Below, in pieces: positions 1-9,499 of a DNA stretch of 9,499 nt. The stretch's first letter is position 1, and each line of letters opens with the position of its first letter. A model generated the notes under the pieces. The model worked only from the letters and a program-made list of their open reading frames with translations. It searched no databases and had not been told where the DNA came from. The position numbers and the translations under genes are program-made. The DNA comes from a virus, in IMG/VR virus record IMGVR_UViG_3300009662_000082, positions 1 through 9,499 of that record. One strand, given 5' to 3'.

Positions 1-123
1 AGATGAATCATTGGTTAAAAGCATCGCAGACAATGTTATGCGCACTGTATTGGCTGATTTCTCCAATCAGGCTGTTATTAGGCAACGCAGTAAACTTCAA
101 TTTTTAACATTCAGGCGTAACCC
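1..123 (+). repeat. Terminal direct repeat, left copy (identical to 9377-9499)
   Basis: Base-by-base comparison: agatgaatcattggttaaaagc...ttcaggcgtaaccc is present at both window ends. Confidence 0.97.
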
Positions 124-193
124 TGAAGCCATTGCGCCTAGTTGGGCATTCCGTAAGCCTGGCTCTGTTCCTGGCTTTCCAACACTGAGATAA
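1..193 (+). CDS. 3' part of a junction-spanning 85-aa hypothetical protein (same ORF as 9312-9499)
   Basis: The frame is open from the window edge (..DESLVKSIADNVMR...GFPTLR) to stop TAA 191-193. The identical sequence at 9377-9499 lies in frame with ATG 9312. Confidence 0.55.
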   Translation, partial: DESLVKSIADNVMRTVLADFSNQAVIRQRSKLQFLTFRRNPEAIAPSWAFRKPGSVPGFPTLR

Positions 194-203
194 GGGCAAC
201 ACC

Positions 204-497
204 ATGTCGAATACTATTGTGGTTGAAGTAACTGGCAACTTCCGTAGCGGTACTGCTGCAAAATCCGGAAAGCCTTATTGCATGTTCGAGGCGTACGCTC
301 ATCTTCCGAATATTCCGTACCCTCAAAAATGTACTTTTTACGCTGAAACTCCTCAGCAGGTGCCTCAGCCTGGTAAATATGAGTGCGATGTGATTGCTCA
401 AGTTCGGGATGATCGCCTTATGTTTGAAGTCGATCCTCGCCAAGGTCGTCGTGTTAGCAGCGGCGCGCCACAAGCAGGTGCCGTTAAAAGTGCCTGA
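204..497 (+). CDS. gV-like ssDNA-binding (helix-destabilising) protein, 97 aa
   Basis: Small protein directly upstream of the coat genes. The pattern RSGTAAKSGKPYCMFEAYAHL...YP...PGKYECD parallels Ff gpV (RSGVSRQGKPYSLNEQLCYV...YP...PGLYTV). AGGG lies about 7 nt before the ATG. Confidence 0.75.
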   Translation: MSNTIVVEVTGNFRSGTAAKSGKPYCMFEAYAHLPNIPYPQKCTFYAETPQQVPQPGKYECDVIAQVRDDRLMFEVDPRQGRRVSSGAPQAGAVKSA

Positions 498-510
498 GGG
501 TTAAATCTTA

Positions 511-735
511 ATGTCTGATTTTGTTCGCTGCACTGGCGAGCTAAAAACTGAGGGTGGTTTTCCTCAGTGTTCGGGATCTTGGGAGGCTGTTCAAGTTCAA
601 CCTCCTTTTGATCCATCCCAGCTAGATCCAATTATCTTGGGTCAAGCATTCGGCGCTGGATTTACTTTGGTAGCAACTTTCATGGTTTTCTCCATGGGAG
701 TCCGTGCGTTTCTAAACTTCATCAAAACAAGTTGA
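511..735 (+). CDS. Small membrane protein, possible minor coat or assembly protein (74 aa)
   Basis: Sits between the gV-like and gVIII-like genes, where Ff has gVII/gIX. One C-terminal hydrophobic helix (GAGFTLVATFMVFSMGV). Confidence 0.55.
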   Translation: MSDFVRCTGELKTEGGFPQCSGSWEAVQVQPPFDPSQLDPIILGQAFGAGFTLVATFMVFSMGVRAFLNFIKTS

Positions 736-742
736 GGCTTAC

Positions 743-964
743 ATGCTTAAAAAAATCGGCAAAAAAAGTATCGCTGCTGTCTTCTTCACTGCTGCAATCT
801 CGGCCAATGCCTTTGCAGCCGGAGCAACTTGGGATTATTCGACGCTGACTTCAAGCGTTGATTTTTCGACGATCAGCGTTGGTGTTCTTGCTGTAGCCGC
901 TTTGCTCGCTGCTGTTTATGCCGGTATCAAAGGCGCGAAAATCGTTCTCGCTTTCTTACGTTAA
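743..964 (+). CDS. gVIII-like major coat protein precursor (73 aa: 25-aa signal peptide plus 48-aa mature protein)
   Basis: Signal peptide MLKKIGKKSIAAVFFTAAISANAFA with an AxA cleavage motif. The mature part has an acidic/polar N-terminus, a hydrophobic core (ISVGVLAVAALLAAVYAG) and a basic C-terminus (IKGAKIVLAFLR). GAGG lies 5 nt before the ATG. Confidence 0.88.
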   Translation: MLKKIGKKSIAAVFFTAAISANAFAAGATWDYSTLTSSVDFSTISVGVLAVAALLAAVYAGIKGAKIVLAFLR

Positions 965-980
965 AAGCCTTTGCGTGACA

Positions 981-1007
981 AAGGGCTCTTTTTGAGCCCT
1001 TTTTTTT
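981..1007 (+). terminator. Rho-independent terminator after the major coat gene
   Basis: 8-bp stem aagggctc (981-988) / gagccctt (994-1001), loop ttttt, then a T-run to 1007. An alternative overlapping stem is cctttg (968-973) / caaagg (979-984). Ff phages also have a terminator after gene VIII. Confidence 0.8.
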
Positions 1008-1019
1008 AAGGGGATTCTC

Positions 1020-1094
1020 ATGGACCAACTCTACTATTTCGCAATGTTTGTCATTGGCTCAAGTTGTGCTTTTGCCGTTTTTTGGGGTTGGTAA
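1020..1094 (+). CDS. Candidate 24-aa hydrophobic micro-ORF (MDQLYYFAMFVIGSSCAFAVFWGW)
   Basis: Below the ORF-track size cutoff. A strong SD, AAGGGGA (1008-1014), lies 5 nt before ATG 1020. Stop TAA 1092-1094 is 1 nt before the gIII-like ATG 1096. Size and hydrophobicity resemble Ff gVII/gIX-class proteins. Confidence 0.3.
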   Translation: MDQLYYFAMFVIGSSCAFAVFWGW

Positions 1095-1095
1095 A

Positions 1096-2529
1096 ATGAA
1101 AAAAATACTCAATATTTTTGTTTTGTTTTTTCTAGCATCTTTCTTTTTCGCAAATTTTGCTCAAGCACAAACCACTTATAAATATAGTTGCGATCATCCT
1201 ATGAGTTATGCTGGTGGTTATAATTGTCCAGACCCGAGTTATAAATTTACTGATCCTGTTGAAGCTGCTGAAAGCGCAATTACAAGCTATAAGGCGTGGT
1301 GGAAAGACCAAGTTTATAAAGAGAAATTCGTTAGTTTTTCTAAAACCTCTCCAGAATGTTCTTACTGGGATCCTAACACTCCGCAATATTACGTTTTGCG
1401 GTGTACCTATCGATACAGAATCACCTATGTCGATACCGTCGGTGGACCTTGGATTCAAACGGCTTATACAGATTCATTTGTTTTTGTTGTTCGTGAGCAT
1501 CCGTGCGAATTCAACGTTGCTTTAAAGGGTACTCTTGGGGCTGTCATTTCCTCCTCTCAATCTGATGGAAAAAAATATATTCTTTCCCAGAATCCTGGAG
1601 AGCCGGCTTGTGTAAGCACTTGCTCTTATAATCTTGATCGTCAGGACAAATGCTATTTAACTATCGGTTCTGAAACTGAAGGGTTTTGTAACTACAATTA
1701 TAAGCTTGGGCTGGACGCATCAGGTAACGAACAAAGATGTCAGACCAATCCGTCTATTAAACCGGCGGAAATCGGTGATGAAATAACTGACAAATGCTCG
1801 GATGGTTACGAATTCGCCAATGGTTCCAAAATGTGCACGCTTATTCCTTGTCCTGAAGGTTCCGAGCGTTTGGAGGGAAGTGAAACCTGTACTCCAATAC
1901 CAAAACAACCTGGTGGTGGAGGTTCTAGCGGTGATGGTGGAACAGGTGGCAGTACGGGCGGTGGAACAGGTGGCGGCACTGGCGGTTCTGGCGGCGGAAC
2001 AGGTGGTGGTACTAGTGGCACTGGTGGCGGTACTGGCAGTGATGGTGGAACTGGCGGCGGCACTGGCGGTACTGGCGGCGGAACAGGTGGTGGTACTAGT
2101 GGTACTGGTGGCGGTACTGGCAGTGATGGTGGAACTGGCGGCGGCACTGGCGGTACTGGCGGCGACACTGGTGGTGATGGTGTTACAGGCGGCGGTACTG
2201 GCGGTGATGGTGGTGGTGAAACTTTTACTCCACCAGGTCCTCTTGATTTGTCGGCTTCTGTTGCTGGACGTGGTGCGCAAGCAAAATCACAGCTCATTGA
2301 TATGAAACAAAAAATGGTTGCATCCAGTACATTCACTACTGCGAAATCTGCTTTCAGCGGTTCTTCTCATGCTGCTGCTGTTTGTCCTGTTGGTTCTGTA
2401 TCTCTTTTTTCAAAAGAAATTGTTTTTGATAGTCACTGCAAGTTATTTGCTCTCATATCGCCAATTTTGAAAGCAGTGTTTATTGCTGTTTGGTCCTTTC
2501 TTGCCGTTCGTATCATCCTGACAGCTTGA
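1096..2529 (+). CDS. gIII-like minor coat / host adsorption protein (477 aa from ATG 1096; the ORF track starts at TTG 1048)
   Basis: Signal peptide MKKILNIFVLFFLASFFFANFAQA. Cys-rich N-terminal domains, a long GGTGG(S/T) glycine linker (about 1912-2217), and a C-terminal hydrophobic anchor (ISPILKAVFIAVWSFLAVRIIL). Positioned after gVIII as in Ff. Confidence 0.85.
   Translation: MKKILNIFVLFFLASFFFANFAQAQTTYKYSCDHPMSYAGGYNCPDPSYKFTDPVEAAESAITSYKAWWKDQVYKEKFVSFSKTSPECSYWDPNTPQYYVLRCTYRYRITYVDTVGGPWIQTAYTDSFVFVVREHPCEFNVALKGTLGAVISSSQSDGKKYILSQNPGEPACVSTCSYNLDRQDKCYLTIGSETEGFCNYNYKLGLDASGNEQRCQTNPSIKPAEIGDEITDKCSDGYEFANGSKMCTLIPCPEGSERLEGSETCTPIPKQPGGGGSSGDGGTGGSTGGGTGGGTGGSGGGTGGGTSGTGGGTGSDGGTGGGTGGTGGGTGGGTSGTGGGTGSDGGTGGGTGGTGGDTGGDGVTGGGTGGDGGGETFTPPGPLDLSASVAGRGAQAKSQLIDMKQKMVASSTFTTAKSAFSGSSHAAAVCPVGSVSLFSKEIVFDSHCKLFALISPILKAVFIAVWSFLAVRIILTA
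1993..2160 (+). repeat. Tandem 84-bp (28-codon) duplication inside the glycine linker
   Basis: 1993-2076 and 2077-2160 differ at one base (ggc at 2017-2019 versus ggt at 2101-2103). Both encode GGTGGGTSGTGGGTGSDGGTGGGTGGTG. Confidence 0.9.
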
Positions 2530-2537
2530 GGTGATTT

Positions 2538-2825
2538 ATGTTGTCCACACTTGCTTCTTGGTTCAAATCAATTTTCGAGCAGATTGCAACTTGGATAATC
2601 GACATCTTTTTTCTGGTGCTCGGTTGGATGTGGGATGCATTTATTTTCCTTCTCGATTCTTTAGGTTTGGCTGATCAAATTCGTACTTCTGCAACCGCTT
2701 TTGATGGTATTCCTGATTCGGTCTGGTATTTCATGAACATGTTTCAGATTCAGTTTGGTCTGGGCTTGATAATTGTTGCCTACCTTATTCGGTTCATGAT
2801 TCGTCGTATTCCGGTGATTGGCTGA
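2538..2825 (+). CDS. gVI-like minor coat / membrane protein (95 aa)
   Basis: Very hydrophobic, with multiple predicted TM helices. Lies between the gIII-like and gI-like genes. SD GAGGTGA precedes the ATG. The stop overlaps the next ATG (gcTGATGg). Confidence 0.7.
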   Translation: MLSTLASWFKSIFEQIATWIIDIFFLVLGWMWDAFIFLLDSLGLADQIRTSATAFDGIPDSVWYFMNMFQIQFGLGLIIVAYLIRFMIRRIPVIG

Positions 2826-3916
2826 TGGCTGTACATGCTTATGTTGGTAAGCCAGGACATGGCAAGACCTATGGTGTTACTGAGCGAGTTGTTATTCCAT
2901 CGCTTAAACAAGGTCGTCATGTTGTAACCAACATCCCCTTAAATATTGATGACTTGCTTGCTGATTTTGGCGGAACAATTCAGCAGCTTCCAGAAGACTG
3001 GTTTGAACTGCCTGACTTGGCCGAATACGTGTTACCTGGGTGTGTTTTGATTATTGACGAAGCATGGCGTCGCTGGCCTCAAGGCCAGAAAGCTAATCAG
3101 GCTAATCCTTGGGATAAGACTTTACTGGCTGAACATCGACACATGGTTGATTCCAAAAACAATTCGATGCGCATTGTCATCGTTACTCAGGATCTTTCTC
3201 AGATTCCCAGCTGGGCAAGAACCCTTATTGAAACAACATTCCGCGTTGTTAAGATCTCCAAGAAAATTTATCGGGTCGATGTTTATTCCGGTGTTGTTAC
3301 TGGCGATAAACCTCCAGTTTCTAATAGGATTCGGCAATTTCCGGGGCGTTTTGACAAAACCATTCAATCCTATTATCAGTCTGCAACACATTCTGCTACT
3401 GGTACTGTTGGTGATGAATCTGTTGCTGACAAGAGTGCGTCTTTTCTGCGCTCGTATGGCTTGTGGTCATTAATTATTGTTGCTGTTGTTGGCTTGCTCA
3501 TTGGCATTTTCGGGATTAAGAGTTTTTTCAAAAAACCTGAAACCCAGACACATCAAGATTCCCCTCAGAAAAAGACTGTTACTGAGGTTCAGACTCCTAA
3601 AATTGTTCCTGTTCCGCCACCTATTATTTACTCTGATTCTTGGAGATTAACCGGTTTCGTCCATCCTTCTGAACCTGATCCAAATGCCAAGCGTGATTCT
3701 TCTGTGGCTGTACTTATCGATAATGCTGGTCACTTGCGTTACATATCTTTTTCAGCCTGTCGTTTCTTCTCTGATTTCAAAGAGGCTTATTGCGACATCG
3801 ATGGTGAACGTGTCACTACCTGGACAACACAAAAAACTTCTTTTTCCATGCCGCCCATTATAAGTGGCTTAGGCGGTGGAGCTGCTCAGCGTAGCGCAAG
3901 CAGCCCATCCGGCTAA
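2825..3916 (+). CDS. gI / Zot-like assembly ATPase (363 aa)
   Basis: N-terminal Walker A GKPGHGKT and Walker B-like VLIIDEAW. A single mid-protein TM helix (LWSLIIVAVVGLLIGIFGI) and a periplasmic C-terminal domain, which is the Zot/pI architecture. Confidence 0.9.
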   Translation: MAVHAYVGKPGHGKTYGVTERVVIPSLKQGRHVVTNIPLNIDDLLADFGGTIQQLPEDWFELPDLAEYVLPGCVLIIDEAWRRWPQGQKANQANPWDKTLLAEHRHMVDSKNNSMRIVIVTQDLSQIPSWARTLIETTFRVVKISKKIYRVDVYSGVVTGDKPPVSNRIRQFPGRFDKTIQSYYQSATHSATGTVGDESVADKSASFLRSYGLWSLIIVAVVGLLIGIFGIKSFFKKPETQTHQDSPQKKTVTEVQTPKIVPVPPPIIYSDSWRLTGFVHPSEPDPNAKRDSSVAVLIDNAGHLRYISFSACRFFSDFKEAYCDIDGERVTTWTTQKTSFSMPPIISGLGGGAAQRSASSPSG

Positions 3917-3940
3917 GCTAATTTTTATCTAGGTATCTTT

Positions 3941-5170
3941 ATGAAAACTTTGTGTTCAATGATGTGTGTCGTTCTTTTCGCTGCATGTTTTTCAGTTTTT
4001 GCAGATGATGAAAGGATGAATTTCGATTTTGACGCTATTCCCTCGAAAACTGCCTTACAGCTTATTGCTGATTTTGCCCGTCTTAATTTGGTTGGTGCGG
4101 ATGATGTCGATGGCTCGATTACGATGCGAATGAAGTCTGTTACTTGGCAGAAGGCTTTGGAGTATGTTGTCAAAACTAAGAGCCTTCATTATGAAATCGA
4201 GGGCAACGTTTTATATGTATCTCGTGATCCAAAGTATTTCGTTCCTCTGGATTCTCCTTTGCCAGTGAGCAAGGATGACAACAAGAATACGATTTTTAAT
4301 ATAAAACATATGCTTGCATCTGAAGCTATTGCTGGTTTTCCGCTTTTTTCCAAAGAATTCAATCAAGAATCGCTTGCTGCTAATGATGCTTCTGGTGTGG
4401 TTTTGGCTCGCCTTTCCCCATCCCGGCTCGAAGAGCTGGCCTCGTATCTAAAAGCCGTAGATTTTCCGCGAGCTCAATTAATGATTGAGGCACGCATTGT
4501 TGAGGTAGACCGATCTTTTTCCAAACAACTTGGTGTTGATTGGTCTGGAACCATCAAGGCCGGAAATTTTATAGGAAAAACTGCCAGTACTTTTGTTGAT
4601 ACCGGTTCTTTGCCTGTTAGTGGTGGCATTGGCTTTGTCTCCAGTTCTGCGATTCTAGATCTGGAATTAGCTGCGATGGAGAAGGGTGGTTATGGAAAGG
4701 TGATCTCTCGACCAAATGTCTTTGCTCGTGATAAGCAACAAGCTCGGATCGTAAAAGGTACCGAGGTTCCTTATCAGCAGACTGCAGGGCAGGGGGCTAC
4801 ATCCACCTCATTTAAGGAGGCTGTGCTTTCTCTCGATGTGACTCCGTTTATCGATGACACTGGCGTAAGGCTCGACATCAAGCTTGCCAAGGATGAGCCT
4901 GATTTTGCTAATGCACTCAATGGTGTTCCGCCTATCAAAACTGTTTCTCTAGCCTCAAATGTCCGAGTAAAGCTCGGCACAACCGTTGCCCTTTGTGGTG
5001 TGTACTCGACGATTGAGACAACCCAGGAGCATCGCGTTCCTGGTCTAGCTTCAATCCCATTTCTTGGCCGGATTTTTCGTTATGAAACGCAATCGACTTC
5101 AACAGCGGAACTGATTCTTTTCATTACTCCAACCTTGGTGCCAGCGGCTGATGTCGCTCAAGTCATGTAG
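3941..5170 (+). CDS. gIV-like secretin (409 aa), with a PilQ-like N-domain
   Basis: Signal peptide MKTLCSMMCVVLFAACFSVFA. The secretin C-domain shows GKVISRPNVFARDKQQARIVKGTEVPY and the C-terminal motif VPGLASIPFLGRIFRY...LILFITPTLV. Confidence 0.9.
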   Translation: MKTLCSMMCVVLFAACFSVFADDERMNFDFDAIPSKTALQLIADFARLNLVGADDVDGSITMRMKSVTWQKALEYVVKTKSLHYEIEGNVLYVSRDPKYFVPLDSPLPVSKDDNKNTIFNIKHMLASEAIAGFPLFSKEFNQESLAANDASGVVLARLSPSRLEELASYLKAVDFPRAQLMIEARIVEVDRSFSKQLGVDWSGTIKAGNFIGKTASTFVDTGSLPVSGGIGFVSSSAILDLELAAMEKGGYGKVISRPNVFARDKQQARIVKGTEVPYQQTAGQGATSTSFKEAVLSLDVTPFIDDTGVRLDIKLAKDEPDFANALNGVPPIKTVSLASNVRVKLGTTVALCGVYSTIETTQEHRVPGLASIPFLGRIFRYETQSTSTAELILFITPTLVPAADVAQVM

Positions 5171-5194
5171 TGCTGATGAGTTCATAGAGCTTAT

Positions 5195-5236
5195 AGTTAT
5201 AACTAAACTAAATGCTTCTTTAGTTTAGTTATAACT
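5195..5236. repeat. Perfect AT-rich 18-bp inverted repeat (hairpin); candidate packaging signal or bidirectional stop
   Basis: agttataactaaactaaa (5195-5212), loop tgcttc, tttagtttagttataact (5219-5236). Lies 25 nt after the secretin stop, between convergent genes. Confidence 0.9.
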
Positions 5237-5293
5237 TTAATTGCTTTGGCGGAGCAGGGCAGCGGGCAAATCCCACATTCCAAATAACTTGTC

Positions 5294-5599
5294 TTAATCT
5301 CTTCGTTTTCCTACGACTATAGCTCCGCGGCTGATTGAGAACCCGACATCACCAACGTAGGTCCCATTCGTTGCTATAGAGCTTTCCGATGTGCCTAAGG
5401 AAATCGGAAGGATGTTTACTACGTCATAGCCTTCGGCATCGTAGTCGTTGTAGACAGCTTCGAGCTGTTTGGCCATTTCGTCGACGTCTACCGTTCTTGG
5501 GTCGTAGACATCCTTGGTCGACATTCCCAAAATTCCGCTGGATACCTTTTTAGTTTTTAGGGCGCTGTAGAACCAGGTGGTGATGAATTTTTTCGACAT
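5294..5599 (-). CDS. Hypothetical cargo protein, 101 aa (MSKKFITTWFYSALK...AIVVGKRRD)
   Basis: ATG 5599 is preceded by a strong SD (AAGGAG, 6 nt spacer). The longer 122-aa ORF-track form starts at a GTG without an SD. No TM segment or signal peptide, and no family I can name. Confidence 0.6.
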   Translation of the reverse strand: MSKKFITTWFYSALKTKKVSSGILGMSTKDVYDPRTVDVDEMAKQLEAVYNDYDAEGYDVVNILPISLGTSESSIATNGTYVGDVGFSISRGAIVVGKRRD

Positions 5600-5715
5600 T
5601 GATAGCTCCTTGGGCTTTACGTTTAGGTTCTTCGTTGAACCGAACGGCTTAAAGGCTATCACGATCGATAATGGCTATACGATGTCACTCGCGGTGATTG
5701 GTTTTTTCGCTGAGG

Positions 5716-5907
5716 CTACGGACGAACTACCGTCAGGATGATCGTGCCATCAGGTTGTTTTTCTATGTCCAGTTTGTCACCGGTGGTTAGCCCGGTAGCC
5801 GCTAGCAGATCATCAGGCAAGGGTATGATCAGGTCGCCACTGCCATCAGCGGCGTCTTCGCAGGTGACAATCCATCGTTTGTTTTCAACGCTTGGTGAAT
5901 GGTTCAT
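5716..5907 (-). CDS. AbrB/MazE/SpoVT-fold DNA-binding protein, 63 aa
   Basis: DLIIPLPDDLLAATGLTTGDKLDIEKQPDGTIILTVV fits the swapped-hairpin AbrB/MazE pattern (IP....LG...GD.L......G.I.L). I chose start ATG 5907. The 42-aa upstream extension of the track ORF looks non-protein-like and runs into the dif-like site. Confidence 0.6.
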   Translation of the reverse strand: MNHSPSVENKRWIVTCEDAADGSGDLIIPLPDDLLAATGLTTGDKLDIEKQPDGTIILTVVRP

Positions 5908-6024
5908 AGTTTTGATCCCGTGATGGCCAGAAGCTGATGATGCCTGTCTACCTTGTAAAAGGCAGTAGCAGGTCGCGTCAGGCTTAAAATCTGACCACCA
6001 GACGCTCCCACGTCCGTATAGGAC

Positions 6025-6142
6025 GGTACGCATAATATCGATGACGTTATGGTAGCTATGCCGTCGTTTTCGACGAATTTAGCGCCGGGATAATGGCGAA
6101 GCCCCGGCGCTGAATTTATCCATAACGTCCATTATGCGAGGC
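6025..6142. other. Candidate XerCD-type attachment region: two inverted dif-like sites able to form a forked hairpin
   Basis: Site A, + strand: GGTACGCATAA (6025-6035), 11-nt spacer, TTATGGTAGCT (6047-6057). Site B, - strand: GCCTCGCATAA (6142-6132), 6-nt spacer TGGACG, TTATGGATAAA (6125-6115). Compare E. coli dif, GGTGCGCATAA-TGTATA-TTATGTTAAAT. In ssDNA, 6029-6036 pairs with 6131-6138 and 6043-6052 pairs with 6120-6129. Confidence 0.45.
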
Positions 6143-6177
6143 GTAGATTTAGAGATTCTTGTGCTCAGATCGCCTTT

Positions 6178-6206
6178 CTATAATCGCTCTATAATCGCCT
6201 ATAAAG
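6178..6206 (+). repeat. Tandem CTATAATCGC repeats (2 perfect copies plus the partial CTATAAAG) at an 11/10-bp period; possible promoter -10 elements or iterons
   Basis: ctataatcgc at 6178-6187 and 6189-6198, then ctataaag at 6199-6206. Each carries TATAAT or TATAAA. TTGTGC (6159-6164) lies 15 nt upstream of the first TATAAT. Confidence 0.8.
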
Positions 6207-6241
6207 TCAGCTTTCTGCCTGCTGCAGGAGATGCCTCACTG

Positions 6242-6264
6242 AAAAGTTTCACGCTGGAACTTTA
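6242..6264 (-). repeat. 23-bp palindrome family, copy 1 (inverted orientation, 21/23 match)
   Basis: aaaagtttcacgctggaacttta. It matches the reverse complement of the consensus (central cgc rather than gcg) and lies just upstream of the HAD gene. Confidence 0.85.
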
Positions 6265-6314
6265 TAGATCGGTGAGCTTTTTTGTCTTTTAAGCATTCCG
6301 CTGAGCTCTTACTT

Positions 6315-6926
6315 ATGCCAGTTTCTGTAGCAATTTTTGATGCTTTCGGCACGTTGCTAAAAATTGAGGAAGGCTCTCATCCTTACCGCAAAATCCTCAA
6401 GCTAGGGATCGAGCAAGGCCGTCGTCCCGGCAGCCGTGATGCCGAAGATTTGCTGACTAAGCCATTGGATTTAAGGCAGGCCGCTGACCATTTCGGCATC
6501 AGGGTTGAGGCTTCTATGATGAGCCGCCTCGAGTTGGATTTGGAAAGGGAGCTGGCAGGTATTGAGGCTTATTCTGATGGTCTCGCGGCTGTTAAAGCGC
6601 TCAAAGCCGCGGGCATAAAGGTTGTTGTGTGTTCGAACCTTGCTCAACCGTATGCCTCGCCAATTGAGCGACTTTTCCCGACCTTGAATGGCTATATCTA
6701 TAGCTTCGCGGTCGGTGCGACTAAACCTTCGTCCGTCATTTATCACGAAGCTTTGCAGTCGGTTTCTGCGCTTCCGGAACATGCTTGGATGGTTGGTGAT
6801 TCACGACGTTTTGACTGCGATGGGCCTACTGCTCACGGCATTCAAGGCTTCTATTTGGACCGTAAAGGTTGTGCCGGCTATGCGTCACTAGATCTGTTTG
6901 CGGAGGCTATTTTGTTAGCCCGGTGA
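6315..6926 (+). CDS. HAD-superfamily (subfamily IA, haloacid-dehalogenase-like) hydrolase, 203 aa from ATG 6315 (alternative TTG 6282)
   Basis: Motif I is AIFDAFGTL, which lacks the second Asp, as in 2-haloacid dehalogenase FDxYGTL. Motif II is VVVCSN. The motif III Lys is in GATKPSSVIY. Motif IV is MVGDSRRFDCDG. No good SD precedes ATG 6315. GGTGAG lies 5 nt before TTG 6282. Confidence 0.85.
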   Translation: MPVSVAIFDAFGTLLKIEEGSHPYRKILKLGIEQGRRPGSRDAEDLLTKPLDLRQAADHFGIRVEASMMSRLELDLERELAGIEAYSDGLAAVKALKAAGIKVVVCSNLAQPYASPIERLFPTLNGYIYSFAVGATKPSSVIYHEALQSVSALPEHAWMVGDSRRFDCDGPTAHGIQGFYLDRKGCAGYASLDLFAEAILLAR

Positions 6927-6954
6927 GCTTTTCATTCAGTCTTTGTTCGTGAGG

Positions 6955-7016
6955 GTGGGACAGCTTTTTCGTCCCGCGCTCTCGGGCGAAGAGCGGGTGG
7001 TAGGGCAGAGCCCTAC
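6955..7016. repeat. Three consecutive GC-rich hairpins downstream of the HAD gene
   Basis: gggac (6957-6961) / gtccc (6971-6975); cgctct (6977-6982) / agagcg (6990-6995); gtaggg (7000-7005) / ccctac (7011-7016). Confidence 0.75.
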
Positions 7017-7037
7017 GTCTTCCATCCGAGTCCCTTC

Positions 7038-7060
7038 AAAAGTTCCAGCGTGGAACTTTT
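7038..7060 (+). repeat. 23-bp perfect palindrome, copy 2
   Basis: aaaagttccagcgtggaactttt: 10-bp arms around a central gcg. Confidence 0.95.
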
Positions 7061-7257
7061 CACTCTTCCTCTTCGAACCAGCCGCCTTGGGCAGGGCCAG
7101 CTAGCGGGCCGAGTGGTTCCAAACTCTTTTCAGGGTGCTTTAGAAATTCCAGAAGCTTTTCATCCGTGGCATGGATCACGCGTTCCGATTTCTGATCTTC
7201 CCCAGGTACTGCTCGCTCAAAAGTTCCAGCGTGGAACTTTTTCGGCTCATCGCTCAT
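7060..7257 (-). CDS. Candidate acidic 65-aa protein (MSDEPKKFHAGTFER...GGWFEEEE)
   Basis: ATG 7257 is preceded by GAGAGGAA with about 6 nt of spacing. Palindrome copy 3 lies inside codons 6-13, and copy 2 starts at the last base of the stop codon. By my count it has 15 D/E against 8 K/R. It may still be a chance ORF in a structured non-coding region. Confidence 0.35.
   Translation of the reverse strand: MSDEPKKFHAGTFERAVPGEDQKSERVIHATDEKLLEFLKHPEKSLEPLGPLAGPAQGGWFEEEE
7218..7240 (+). repeat. 23-bp perfect palindrome, copy 3 (with a conserved 5' flank)
   Basis: aaaagttccagcgtggaactttt preceded by ccaggtactgctcgctc. Copy 4 is preceded by the near-identical cctggtactgctcgttg. Confidence 0.95.
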
Positions 7258-7297
7258 GGCTGATTCCTCTCTGCATTCGCTACCTGGTACTGCTCGT

Positions 7298-7320
7298 TGA
7301 AAAGTTCCAGCGTGGAACTT
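7298..7320 (+). repeat. 23-bp perfect palindrome, copy 4 (with a conserved 5' flank)
   Basis: aaaagttccagcgtggaactttt, 80 bp downstream of copy 3. The extended unit of about 40 bp is shared with copy 3. Confidence 0.95.
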
Positions 7321-7355
7321 TTGATGCCTTGCCGCTCTGGTTTCGGAGCGAAGCG

Positions 7356-7404
7356 AGTGGGGGTGCTGTTACACCCCCACTTTGGTATGGTTTTCCATAC
7401 TTTT
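7356..7404 (+). terminator. Tandem hairpins, terminator-like on the + strand (end of the HAD transcription unit; convergent with the repressor gene)
   Basis: 10-bp GC-rich stem agtgggggtg (7356-7365) / cacccccact (7372-7381) followed by tttgg. Then gtatgg (7385-7390) / ccatac (7395-7400) followed by tttt. Confidence 0.5.
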
Positions 7405-7456
7405 AAAGCCTGCCAGCTTTCCTGTCTTTCTTGGCATCTCGTGTTTTACACCCACT

Positions 7457-7807
7457 TCACCGTGGTTTCCCACGGTCGGTGAAATAGTCTTCGAGCTCCA
7501 AGCTCGAAAGCACACCGCTAACTATGTTGCGAGCCATTGGTTTAACGGAATCGGGTAAATCACTGAATCGTCTAAACAAAGCTTTCATGTCTTCTGCTAC
7601 GTCACGCTCGCTCCCTTCAAGCAGGATCTCGTCTGTCGTGCATTTAAAAAGGATCGCCATGCGCACCACTTTGTCACCTGGCGGAGCATTTTTATCCTTT
7701 TCCCAGCCCGCGACGGTGTTCTCACCGCTGCCTATGGCTTCAGCCAGAGCCTTCTGAGTGAGACCTTGCCTCTCTCTTTTGATCCGGATGTTTTCTCCGA
7801 TGCTCAT
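7457..7807 (-). CDS. XRE-family helix-turn-helix repressor, 116 aa from ATG 7807 (alternative GTG 7849)
   Basis: IGENIRIKRERQGLTQKALAEAIGSGENTVAGWEKDKNAPPGDKVVRMAILFKCTTDEILL is a typical HTH_3/XRE (cI-like) domain. The gene is divergent from rep, as in CTXphi rstR-rstA and the Pf repressor arrangement. Confidence 0.85.
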   Translation of the reverse strand: MSIGENIRIKRERQGLTQKALAEAIGSGENTVAGWEKDKNAPPGDKVVRMAILFKCTTDEILLEGSERDVAEDMKALFRRFSDLPDSVKPMARNIVSGVLSSLELEDYFTDRGKPR

Positions 7808-7963
7808 TTCTGTGTGTACCAAGTAACTTTGATCGGCCAAATCTAACACCTGTATATTTATCCATCCCGAAATTATGTGGTTTTACCGCGAAATTCCGGT
7901 TGCGGCTCAAGCACCATATATCGTAGGCTATCATTCTAATTTAGTGGCTTGACAGGTTTTTGG
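7808..7963. promoter_or_regulatory. Divergent repressor/rep control region (putative lysogeny switch)
   Basis: Non-coding region between divergent genes. The direct 7-mers CGAAATT at 7868-7874 and 7889-7895 are 21 bp apart. TATAAT-like hexamers TATCAT (7929-7934) and TCTAAT (7935-7940) face rep. I could not assign convincing -35 elements. Confidence 0.5.
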
Positions 7964-9103
7964 ATGTTCATCGATTGGCTCACGATTTCGCAGGAGCATG
8001 ACCACGATCTACCGATCGTTGGCAACATCGTGCACCTGACGGTTGACGAGAATACCAATCAAGTTTTGAGCACTAGTCGACCTCGTTTCAAGCATGAGGG
8101 TAGTTTCTCCACCTCGGTCACGATTCATATTCAGGGCCGAAAAATTCGAGTTGAGGGAAATCCTAGTCGGGTAGGGCGGTTGGACAACCTGTTTGGACAC
8201 GCGACCATCGAGCAATGTGTCTCGGTCTACAACGGATTGCTGCGTGAGTACGGTCTTCCTGGCTTCACCCGTTGCACAAGAATTGATATTCGCCAAGGGA
8301 AGCCAGATTCAGTTGTTAAATCCGGTGACCGTATAGCCGACGGCGCAAAAATTGAGCGTATCGACCTAACGACCAACTTTGCATTGGGGGAGGGCAACGT
8401 ACTTGCTTATTTGCGTGGTGTTTCTAGTCAGCGTATTGGGCACTCCATCGGTTTTCTACATCCGAATGGCCGTACTGTTTCTTGGACTCCAAAGGGCAAT
8501 GGAAAAGGCGGTCGACTTCAATATCGTAAGGCCTACGACAAGGCTTTTGAGATGGATCTGAATTCTCTTCCAAAGATCAAACGTCGGTTTGGTGAATCTT
8601 CAGAAGAGTACAAATATGTTAAGCGGGTTAGAGATTACTGCGCACAAGAAGGCGTGGTCCGCTTGGAACAAGAGCTAAAAAGCGAATTTTTACAGCGTGA
8701 AGCCCTTTGCTATTGGGGCCTATTTGATGAACGGCGTTTGGCCGAACTCCACAGCGAGTTTCTTAAGATAGATGAAAAGTTAAAGGTGACAGCCATGGAT
8801 ATTGTGAGTATTGCCGAACAGTTAATTGCTGAGGGTGTTTGCGACACCCTACGCTCTGCTCGTACCACGGCTAGTTACGCTCTTGAGTGGATGTCCGGAA
8901 CAGCTAACATCGACTTTAAGAAGTCTCAGGTTAAAGGGCACGCAGCGAAGCTTAATCGAATCGGCATCAATATTCGAAATGCTTGTGACACAAGCCGCTT
9001 TGCTCCTGTTTTTGTTCGTCAATGCCGTGAAGTTTCAAAGTCTGCTTTGGTCGTCCCAGTCTGGTATCAACGGGCTAATCATCTCCAGCAGGTCGCAGCG
9101 TGA
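7964..9103 (+). CDS. Rolling-circle replication initiation protein (gII / phage CRI family), 379 aa from ATG 7964 (the track starts at TTG 7949)
   Basis: The N-terminus MFIDWLTIS and the motif EGNPSRVGRLDNLFGH resemble the conserved IDWL and GNP..x..N.FG signatures of filamentous-phage gene II/X-family Rep proteins. It is the first gene of the long + strand operon. Confidence 0.88.
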   Translation: MFIDWLTISQEHDHDLPIVGNIVHLTVDENTNQVLSTSRPRFKHEGSFSTSVTIHIQGRKIRVEGNPSRVGRLDNLFGHATIEQCVSVYNGLLREYGLPGFTRCTRIDIRQGKPDSVVKSGDRIADGAKIERIDLTTNFALGEGNVLAYLRGVSSQRIGHSIGFLHPNGRTVSWTPKGNGKGGRLQYRKAYDKAFEMDLNSLPKIKRRFGESSEEYKYVKRVRDYCAQEGVVRLEQELKSEFLQREALCYWGLFDERRLAELHSEFLKIDEKLKVTAMDIVSIAEQLIAEGVCDTLRSARTTASYALEWMSGTANIDFKKSQVKGHAAKLNRIGINIRNACDTSRFAPVFVRQCREVSKSALVVPVWYQRANHLQQVAA

Positions 9104-9312
9104 GAACTGTAGATTTTCAAGGTACTCAGCTTTCAACAGGTCAAAAACGTCGTTTGGCTGAGCAGCGACAAGTGCGTTCTTCATTTATCAATCCTGTTCT
9201 TGCTCAGCAGGTCGAACAAACATTTAGGGCTGTTGAAGCTCTTAAAGAGCTATGGTTTTTCGATTATGAAGAGAAAGGGACGCTTTGTATTGTCGATTGG
9301 GTGGGTTTCTAA
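9100..9312 (+). CDS. Hypothetical protein, 70 aa (GTG start overlapping the rep stop)
   Basis: The ORF is coupled at both ends: GTGA overlaps the rep stop and TAATG overlaps the next start. It has no internal Met and no recognisable motif. Confidence 0.5.
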   Translation: MRTVDFQGTQLSTGQKRRLAEQRQVRSSFINPVLAQQVEQTFRAVEALKELWFFDYEEKGTLCIVDWVGF

Positions 9313-9499
9313 TGGATAAGAAACAGTTTCAGGTTCTTCGCTGGAATATCGAAGCTGACATTCGTAACCATGTGACAGATGAATCATTGGTTAAAAGCAT
9401 CGCAGACAATGTTATGCGCACTGTATTGGCTGATTTCTCCAATCAGGCTGTTATTAGGCAACGCAGTAAACTTCAATTTTTAACATTCAGGCGTAACCC
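9312..9499 (+). CDS. 5' part of the junction-spanning 85-aa hypothetical protein (continues at 1-193 of the circle)
   Basis: ATG 9312 overlaps the preceding stop (TAATG). The frame is open to the window end, and the frame agrees with the ORF ending at 193 after subtracting 9,376. Confidence 0.55.
   Translation, partial: MDKKQFQVLRWNIEADIRNHVTDESLVKSIADNVMRTVLADFSNQAVIRQRSKLQFLTFRRN
9377..9499 (+). repeat. Terminal direct repeat, right copy (identical to 1-123)
   Basis: Same 123 nt as the window start. Consistent with a circular assembly overlap or the start of a second tandem genome copy. Confidence 0.97.

Follow-up and report, generated by a model that had tools for sequence, protein, structure and literature searches.

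A repeated short palindrome at the cargo boundaries of Pseudomonas filamentous phages: a candidate weak attenuator

Overview

The viral record IMGVR_UViG_3300009662_000082 was analysed over a stretch of 9,499 nucleotides (nt), its positions 1 to 9,499, hereafter called the window. The subject is a 23-base palindrome, P, that is repeated beside the accessory (cargo) genes of this phage and of its relatives. P-type elements are best described, as far as sequence comparison can tell, as short palindromic boundary elements of mobile replicons. The reading that we favour, with a probability of about 0.4, is that P acts as a weak bidirectional hairpin attenuator/insulator, which has spread by copying and which also serves as a recombination joint. 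It is preferred because of the A-tract/hairpin/T-tract design of P, its boundary positions, the lack of a partner protein, a strand signal, and the occurrence of other palindromes in the same region of sister phages. The anatomy, positions and distribution of P, its copying, its place at mosaic breakpoints and its location in the transcription unit that leads from the XRE-family repressor gene to the cargo were read directly from the compared genomes.

Anatomy and Distribution

The 23-mer AAAAGTTCCAGCGTGGAACTTTT matches the plus strand of the window exactly at three places, named P_stop, P_in and P_up, and a fourth copy, in the opposite orientation, agrees with it at 21 of 23 positions (Table 1). 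Its expected count in 200 dinucleotide-preserving shuffles was 0.00, with a maximum of 0. The initial annotation had described this repeat, and both the exact copies and the inverted one were confirmed. The starts that it gave as 7038 and 6242 proved correct, whereas those given as 7218 and 7298 are really 7219 and 7300, off by 1 and 2; the start-to-start distances between the exact copies are 181 and 81 nt rather than the reported 180 and 80 bp. An extended unit of about 40 bp had also been noted, and it does exist: the two 40-nt units that end with P_in and P_up are 93% identical. What had been overlooked is that the 7219 copy lies inside a 65-aa open reading frame (ORF), whose stop codon is directly bordered by the 7038 copy. 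The description of P as a perfect palindrome holds for its arms of 10 + 10 nt and not for the 3-nt centre, GCG, which is not self-complementary. Since this centre alone breaks the symmetry, each copy has an orientation. Folding gives -7.9 kcal/mol for P as single-stranded DNA; as RNA the values are -9.3 with the A·U extension and -5.0 for the 6-bp core, which holds 3 G·C pairs.

In total, 31 copies were found in 11 related phage genomes (the window, L006, L001/L079, L073, L080, L086, L067 and L160-L163), and six further ones on plasmid contigs from three strains. The phage copies yield the consensus AAAA-GTTCCA-SCS-TGGAAY-TTT, and the degenerate motif was written as AAGTTCCANNNTGGAAYTT. Ten arm positions are invariant in all 31 copies, and the four arm variants are all transitions. 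The middle pair of the centre is always C:G; otherwise the centre is variable (GCG, CGC, CCG, GGC, GCC, CCA, TCG, ACG). On the outer sides, positions -2/-1 are A in 30/31 copies and +15/+16 are T in 31/31, with T at +17 in 30/31 and at +18 in 16/31; no conservation extends beyond these A and T tracts in the 31 copies. Across 35 copies, 97.1% of the stem cells are paired. With 11 phage genomes, of about six or seven lineages, this is a small family, and arguments from strand bias and from concerted evolution rest on few independent events.

All copies of P fall within the variable region, which is bounded by a conserved attP-like hairpin (~6019-6150) and the probable origin (7357-7400). Some precede, by 27-54 nt, the start codons of four cargo genes that are unrelated to one another, namely the small 65-aa ORF, the HAD gene, an Xre_MbcA_ParS_C-type antitoxin-like gene and ORF83 of L080. 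P_up is placed 64-185 nt past the XRE stop codon and, in 10 of the 11 carrier lineages, 33-43 nt from the origin-like hairpin; in the window, 42 nt separate its end from the ATG of the small ORF. In L067, P comes only 27 nt, ribosome-binding site included, before the next start codon. This gap leaves no room for a separate promoter, which puts P inside the XRE-to-cargo transcription unit; transcription of the XRE gene probably continues across the origin region and P_up and reaches the cargo genes.

P_stop is found at the stop codon of the small ORF or at most 15 nt from it, between convergent genes, and this position is kept in nine lineages. Likewise, the P466 copy of L080 sits 3 nt past the stop of ORF83. 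In Pseudomonas sp. FP215 (L073), P_stop lies inside the 3' end of the small ORF, read in another frame and with another centre, which indicates that the constraint acts on the nucleic acid and not on the peptide. The peptide repeat KFHAGTF was accordingly dropped as the conserved feature: the frame differs in FP215, and in L006 and the window there is no upstream start codon. As for the inverted 6242 copy, its ortholog in L006 has intact arms and agrees at 22/23 positions overall.

As a sequence tag, AAGTTCCA-N3-TGGAACTT can be used to locate cargo boundaries in the Pseudomonas inovirus clade and to trace exchange between phages and plasmids. Among the annotated records examined, none labels P. 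The search of the phage collection returned chance matches within coding regions only. An unrelated AT-rich viral contig (L049, 13220-13311) has two intergenic copies of GTTCCAAAATGGAAC, 77 nt apart, which probably represent convergence on a similar palindrome. Broader palindromes of the form GTTYC...GRAAC are in excess (58 observed vs 21.5 in shuffles); they were not retained as a superfamily, because the excess consists mostly of P and of the repeats of the sister phages L083 and L084.

These sister phages are without P and carry three tandem units of ~107 nt with other A/T-flanked palindromes. The units (L083 990-1270, also L084 500-780) hold AGTTTCCGA.T.TCGGAAACT and AGTTTCGCGG.CCGCGAAACT, and the outer stem AGTTYC...GRAACT is common to these palindromes and P.

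On the plasmid side, pGLE121P2 and pA62H2, which come from Antarctic strains of Pseudomonas, carry the P core, as does a small Rep_3 replicon (L009/L010), and the same arms are present on a contig labelled Janthinobacterium. Behind plasmid P, within 6-8 nt, there is usually a second palindrome, TTTTCGCG-NN-CGCGAAAA, which AGTTTCGCGG.CCGCGAAACT of the sister phages resembles. The P-bearing plasmids and the phage have no protein in common. On pA62H2, a 27-nt stretch matching the phage origin hairpin at 96% lies 35 nt from one P copy, which shows a past recombination of phage with plasmid DNA close to P. Some 60-120 nt from plasmid P, a long hairpin followed by CACCTATCTTGCCC was seen (L009 ~3070-3120, L010 ~3381, and pA62H2, L165, ~3520-3560); we take this site to resemble the IncP/RP4 nick region of the origin of transfer, oriT.

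Copying and Recombination

The identity of the copies had been thought to imply selection or recent spread, and the comparison bears this out, concerted evolution and copying both being visible. In the window, L006 and L160, the small ORF carries ~14 additional codons (42 nt), inserted in frame and made up of P and its extension, and the homologous ORFs of L001, L073 (FP215), L080 and L163 (SED1) are without this 40-nt insert. As in a mobile palindromic mini-element, a unit of ~40 nt thus stands at a new site, in frame within a gene. No obvious target-site duplications at the P copies and no transposase gene in the phage were seen, these having been looked for without a systematic search. The two 40-nt repeats with their 41-nt spacer were also considered as a mini-CRISPR array; this was rejected, as one repeat is coding and the second is missing in relatives.

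Homogenisation can be followed in the centres. The three forward copies of the window are identical, with GCG, and the three of L160, read on the same strand, are identical with GCC. In L001, L073 and L163, P_up (GCG) and P_stop (GGC) stably differ and the arms are intact. The homology to the window begins at window position 7288 for L086 and 7298 for L067, which is the left edge of P_up, and the extra genes of L001/L079 and L160 are inserted 7-35 nt from P_up. In L163, a 142-nt segment that contains the 6242 copy is missing. The module of HAD and small ORF is ~73% identical to that of L001, as compared to 88-90% for its flanks. L090 has, at the position of P_up and ~49 nt from the origin hairpin, the sequence AAAAGTTACTTTT, equal to P minus its central 10 nt; it looks like a deletion scar left by the loss of P. 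From these alignments, P copies appear to be homogenised within genomes and placed at mosaic breakpoints.

A different proposal was that P represents repetitive extragenic palindromic (REP)-like repeats of the host, captured with the HAD gene. Neither part found support. A host scan was made with the GCG-centred 19-mer on one genome each for 185,579 species; within Pseudomonas the 19-mer was found only on the phage-derived contig L006, and its matches in Bradyrhizobium and Bacteroidota are single sites in a context conserved across species, presumably coding sequences. Moreover, P occurs without HAD in L086, L067, L080, L161 and L162.

These observations raise the question of whether P, instead of regulating anything, is chiefly a joint for recombination or a selfish palindrome that is easily copied. 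Identical 23-bp repeats would then persist because they drive the exchange of modules, and gene conversion, when phages and plasmids co-infect. This would account for the breakpoints and insertions around P_up, the missing segment in L163, the divergent HAD module between well-conserved flanks, the unit copied in frame into an ORF, the homogenised centres, the scar in L090 and the position of P beside a phage origin fragment in pA62H2. As a full explanation it seems doubtful to us, however: no recombinase goes with P, repeats of 23 bp are at the lower limit of what homologous recombination requires, and neither the palindrome with its A/T flanks nor the regular positions at start and stop codons would be explained. 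In addition, the copies with unlike centres in L001, L073 and L163 have kept their arms intact although they were not homogenised. A further reading, which we consider improbable, is that filamentous phages and small plasmids share a gene-cassette system in which P marks the junctions. The P hairpin, single-stranded or cruciform, would be recognised by an enzyme of the host or of the phage core, and cargo would be captured, inverted and exchanged next to the rolling-circle origin, in an integron-like manner without an integron integrase.

Proposed Attenuation of Transcription

Of the roles considered in the initial annotation, that of bidirectional attenuators turned out to be the most likely, although its own caveat, the weakness of the hairpin, also holds. 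According to this reading, P would be a portable short hairpin at the edges of the accessory genes of the clade, and the succession of A-tract, hairpin and T-tract would cause weak attenuation in both directions. The hairpin presumably forms in RNA and lowers read-through. P would in this way reduce the transcription that passes from the repressor gene into the cargo, keep the converging transcripts of HAD and the small ORF apart, and protect the origin/immunity core from transcription that comes from the cargo or, in a prophage, from the host side. Local copying or gene conversion would multiply and homogenise the copies, and these, being identical, could act as joints for swaps of cargo modules. 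If this is true, a very small phage insulates its replication/immunity core from fast-turnover accessory genes, and the exchange of accessory genes as neat cassettes is explained.

The strand signal concerns the structured block beside P_stop, whose folding favours the plus strand (z values below), and the variants in the stem. These variants are mostly G·T(U) pairs on the plus strand, with 13 cells vs 4 when the outermost position is excluded, which corresponds to roughly 6-8 independent events vs 2; at P_stop, 4/5 variant stem-pair states are plus-strand wobbles. The bias is suggestive and not statistically significant, and it fits either plus-sense RNA or packaged plus-strand DNA. The idea that P works as a single-stranded DNA hairpin for Rep or for minus-strand priming thus keeps a weak plus-strand wobble bias in favour of its single-strand part, and its Rep part found no support, as discussed below.

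Several points weigh against attenuation. By the folding energies given above the hairpin is weak. Only 3-4 T follow the stem, and these are predicted to pair with the A-tract, where a terminator would have about five or more U right after the stem; a scan with the terminator consensus flags no P copy. No compensatory double change is seen in the 35 copies, and this lack of covariation indicates that the arm sequence is conserved beyond the needs of pairing. P_stop, P466 of L080 and, loosely, P_up stand at gene ends, but the copy 50 nt upstream of HAD has no gene end nearby and another lies inside an ORF. The wobble bias is not significant, and in the L080 lineage the wobbles weaken the hairpin in the small-ORF mRNA. 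Finally, the palindrome that directly follows plasmid P is a stronger terminator-like one, which would make a terminator role of P redundant there. On account of these weaknesses, a sequence-specific binding protein stays a serious rival.

Possible Recognition by a Protein

If P is a protein site, it would be a double-stranded operator or roadblock for a dimeric protein of the host or the phage core, distinct from the immunity repressor and from cargo proteins, and the bound protein would govern or stop transcription at the edges of the cargo, much as stoperators do. We rate this as possible, though less likely than attenuation. The centre and outer flanks vary and the 9-bp arms hardly at all, the site is ~21 bp long with half-site centres ~11 bp apart, and it recurs 27-54 nt before four unrelated cargo-gene starts. 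The same arms are shared with unrelated Pseudomonas plasmids and the Janthinobacterium-labelled contig; such identity across replicons could, however, come from horizontal transfer, given the origin fragment 35 nt from P in pA62H2. The arm variant GTTCCA...TGGAAT, common to all copies of L080, L161 (from Pseudomonas sp. AU10) and L162 despite their differing centres, is what a binding site would show, yet its asymmetry is odd for a symmetric dimer. Nor would a protein site explain the plus-strand wobble bias. The co-occurrence screen of all ORFs revealed no carrier-specific protein, so that no candidate goes with P. Should a binding protein or enzyme recognise P after all, it would define a new host-phage-plasmid interaction.

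The two nearby regulators that had been suggested as binders of P are both rejected. In the case of XRE, the same P is present in phages of at least four XRE/Rep intergenic (immunity) types, each of which has its own repeats, none of them P-like, over the TTGACA of the Rep promoter, and the recognition helix of XRE is identical in carriers and non-carriers of P. It had been remarked that the repressor/rep intergenic region has no copy, and indeed 7850-7948 contains neither P nor a half-site repeat. The repeats present there in the window, AATTWWGTGG, overlap the TTGACA of the Rep promoter and are likely to be the true XRE operators. For the AbrB-like protein, its gene is missing in L001, with its three copies of P, and is found in L081 and L088, where P does not occur.

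Other kinds of site were compared with P by inspection, on the basis of their general consensus sequences. An AlgU/sigma-E-type promoter, with GGAACTT as an approximate -35 element, was set aside when no TCnnA -10 element was seen by eye at 16-17 nt in any lineage. Sigma-54 promoters, integron attC, XerCD dif and the core sites of serine and tyrosine recombinases did not fit in spacing or sequence.

A link to replication is suggested by M13, in which GTTCCA-AAC-TGGAAC, with the same 6-nt arms and 3-nt spacing, was confirmed in the sequence at 5795-5809. The gpII footprint of M13 covers 5774-5813, with the nick at 5780/5781 (PMC5405960), and the palindrome falls inside it. P could by analogy provide accessory binding sites for the phage gpII-family Rep, as in the M13/f1 origin: the window Rep carries PF05144 and PF05155, P_up lies close to the probable origin hairpin, and in pA62H2 an origin-like hairpin is at 35 nt from P. 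Even so, we find this very unlikely. The exact P core is present in only 2/80 viral contigs with a 69-93% identical Rep, the other 78 being without it, and apparently complete genomes with an 86-89% identical Rep carry no P core. In L081, L082, L084, L088 and L090 there is no P-like copy at up to 2 mismatches. The position equivalent to that in M13, 3 nt on the 3' side of the hairpin, is held by GTATGG-TTTT-CCATAC or ACCGTGG-TTTC-CCACGGT, and P_up is on the 5' side of the conserved hairpin. Besides, M13 gpII is too distant from the window Rep for phmmer to link the two. A Rep-binding origin site therefore fails on co-occurrence and on position despite the identical arms; unlike the f1/M13 gpII palindrome, P is multi-copy, lies outside the probable nick hairpin and at cargo boundaries, and does not co-occur with Rep.

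The least credible of the candidates is a parS-like decoy or piggy-back site that would recruit the ParB of the host. The 16-bp palindrome TGTTCCACGTGGAACA is taken here as the parS site bound by Pseudomonas ParB. The arms of P (GTTCCA/TGGAAC) equal those of parS. P. aeruginosa ParB binds the heptamers GTTCCAC and GTTTCAC (PMC10419367). The 6242 variant corresponds to GTTTCAC; a canonical heptamer is present in 23/37 copies, with two heptamers in 3 copies, and no partition gene was seen among the genes examined on L009/L010 and pGLE121P2. On the other hand, 14/37 copies, including all three in L160, have no canonical heptamer, and on this ground a ParB half-parS was rejected. P has one extra central base pair and is thus 17 bp (8-1-8) rather than 16 bp, with A rather than T outside the arms, and Gly-codon repeats of the pIII-like gene account for half of the GTTCCAC excess seen in the window. 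None of the carrier replicons contains a match to TGTTCCACGTGGAACA, even with 2 mismatches allowed.

Genomic Context

The window begins and ends with an exact 123-nt direct repeat (1-123 = 9377-9499), and the genome is therefore circular, of ~9376 bp. Its genes include those for a Rep of the gpII family (7949-9103), a Zot/pI protein, a pIV secretin, a pIII-like protein rich in Gly and an AbrB/MazE-like protein; the content of Rep, Zot/pI, secretin and pIII-like genes identifies it as an inovirus. Its host genus, judged by sequence relatives, is Pseudomonas. L006, a 1.6-kb contig of Pseudomonas sp. ANT_H12B, is 95% identical to window 6025-7360, and related prophages were found in assemblies of Pseudomonas sp. 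FP215 (L073), AU10 (L161) and SED1 (L163). The features around P are collected in Table 1.

Table 1. Copies of P and neighbouring features in the window
Feature	Positions	Strand	Description
Inverted P copy	6242..6264		21/23; 50 nt upstream of the probable HAD start (ATG 6315)
HAD-family hydrolase cargo gene	6315..6926	+	Pfam PF00702, E = 1.7e-11; between the inverted 6242 copy and P_stop
Structured non-coding block	6936..7017	+	Three hairpins; between the HAD stop codon and P_stop
P_stop	7038..7060	+	Abuts the small-ORF stop codon, between the convergent HAD and small-ORF genes, beside the structured block
Small acidic 65-aa ORF	7060..7257	-	Bracketed by P_up and P_stop
P_in	7219..7241	+	Inside the small ORF, codes KKFHAGTF; with its extension (7202-7241) an in-frame insert of ~14 codons
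P_up	7300..7322	+	Junction of core (origin, XRE, Rep) and variable cargo; with a 17-nt extension a 40-nt unit (7283-7322)
Probable plus-strand origin	7357..7400	+	Hairpin GTGGGGGTG-CTGTTA-CACCCCCAC, then TTTG, then GTATGG-TTTT-CCATAC
XRE-family repressor gene	7457..7849	-	Pfam HTH_3, E = 9.8e-13

The small ORF is a real gene by its conservation at the protein level: it has 33 protein homologs, all source-named ones being from Pseudomonas, and no match to a Pfam or PHROG family. The HAD protein of the window is 40-46% identical to those of L001 and FP215, as compared to 88-90% for the flanking DNA. The cargo beside P changes from lineage to lineage, with a Fic-domain protein and an antitoxin-like partner in L086 (3690-5325), an antitoxin-like gene of the Xre_MbcA_ParS_C type and a MazE-like gene accompanied by a HipA_C kinase gene in L160 (4147-4623 and 6247-7721), and a 126-aa ORF in L001 (8024-8404). 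From such gene content, the region adjacent to P is a hot spot for cargo of the defence or toxin type. The region 5900-7950 gave no Rfam match at E <= 1 and no tRNA or tmRNA (transfer-messenger RNA) gene.

The hairpin of the probable plus-strand origin (7357-7380) is nearly invariant in 78 Rep-related loci; the origin tracks Rep and does not belong to the P family. M13 has a nick hairpin, then CTT, then the binding palindrome, and the hairpin of the window is likewise trailed, after 3-4 nt, by a palindrome. At the other end of the variable region, 6019-6150 can fold into a long forked hairpin of -54 kcal/mol, whose arms carry inverted CGCATAAT...TTATGG motifs at 6029 (+) and 6138 (-). The segment 6027-6142 is conserved in 21 relatives, often at contig or prophage ends, and the hairpin presumably resembles the folded single-stranded attP of the CTXphi type that is used by XerCD. 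The probable origin and attP of this inovirus clade are thus located.

The structured block of 82 nt between HAD and P_stop is ~95% identical across lineages whose flanks are ~73% identical, and it is present only in lineages with the small ORF. Folded together with the 7038 copy and compared with shuffles, it gives z = -5.3 (RNA) and -5.2 (DNA) on the plus strand, and z = -2.0 (RNA) and -3.1 (DNA) on the minus strand. Its second hairpin is swapped for a different one in L080, L161 and L162. The block could be a structured 3' untranslated region, a small RNA or a single-strand DNA element. A metagenome scan with the block motif returned no contig beyond those already collected.

Two further repeats were observed elsewhere in the genome. 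The pIII-like gene has Gly/Thr/Ser-rich tandem coding repeats (1915-2211, 11 overlapping copies of 84 nt) that contain GGTGGAAC four times and so raise the number of ParB-type heptamers. After the secretin gene, at 5191-5240, there is an inverted repeat with 22-nt arms, 95% complementary and 6 nt apart. A similar sequence is found at the right end of the FP215 prophage (L073 ~12150-12190), which has AbrB-like genes at both ends.

Comparison with Known Systems

REP elements and bacterial interspersed mosaic elements (BIMEs), as well as the Rickettsia palindromic elements, are short palindromic repeats located at gene ends. P and the Rickettsia elements are alike in that a copy is inserted in frame in a protein-coding gene. 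Unlike REP/BIME, P is not a repeat of the host chromosome, has 1-4 copies per replicon and shows neither a GTAG-type head nor a known transposase.

The mycobacteriophage stoperators of the L5/Bxb1 type are asymmetric 13-mers in multiple copies, present at the early promoter as well, which are bound by the immunity repressor and block elongation. P differs from them in being palindromic, missing from the XRE/Rep promoter region and independent of the immunity type. The two are alike in consisting of several identical short intergenic sites spread across a gene block within transcription units.

For the favoured reading, the nearest known counterpart is formed by the bidirectional intrinsic (Rho-independent) terminators that flank phage 'morons'. 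As compared to these, P has a short stem with 3 G·C pairs and 3-4 U, is conserved without covariation, and is found in some cases in 5' leaders and inside ORFs. What P has in common with the moron terminators is the same succession of A-tract, hairpin and T-tract, placed between convergent or tandem accessory genes.

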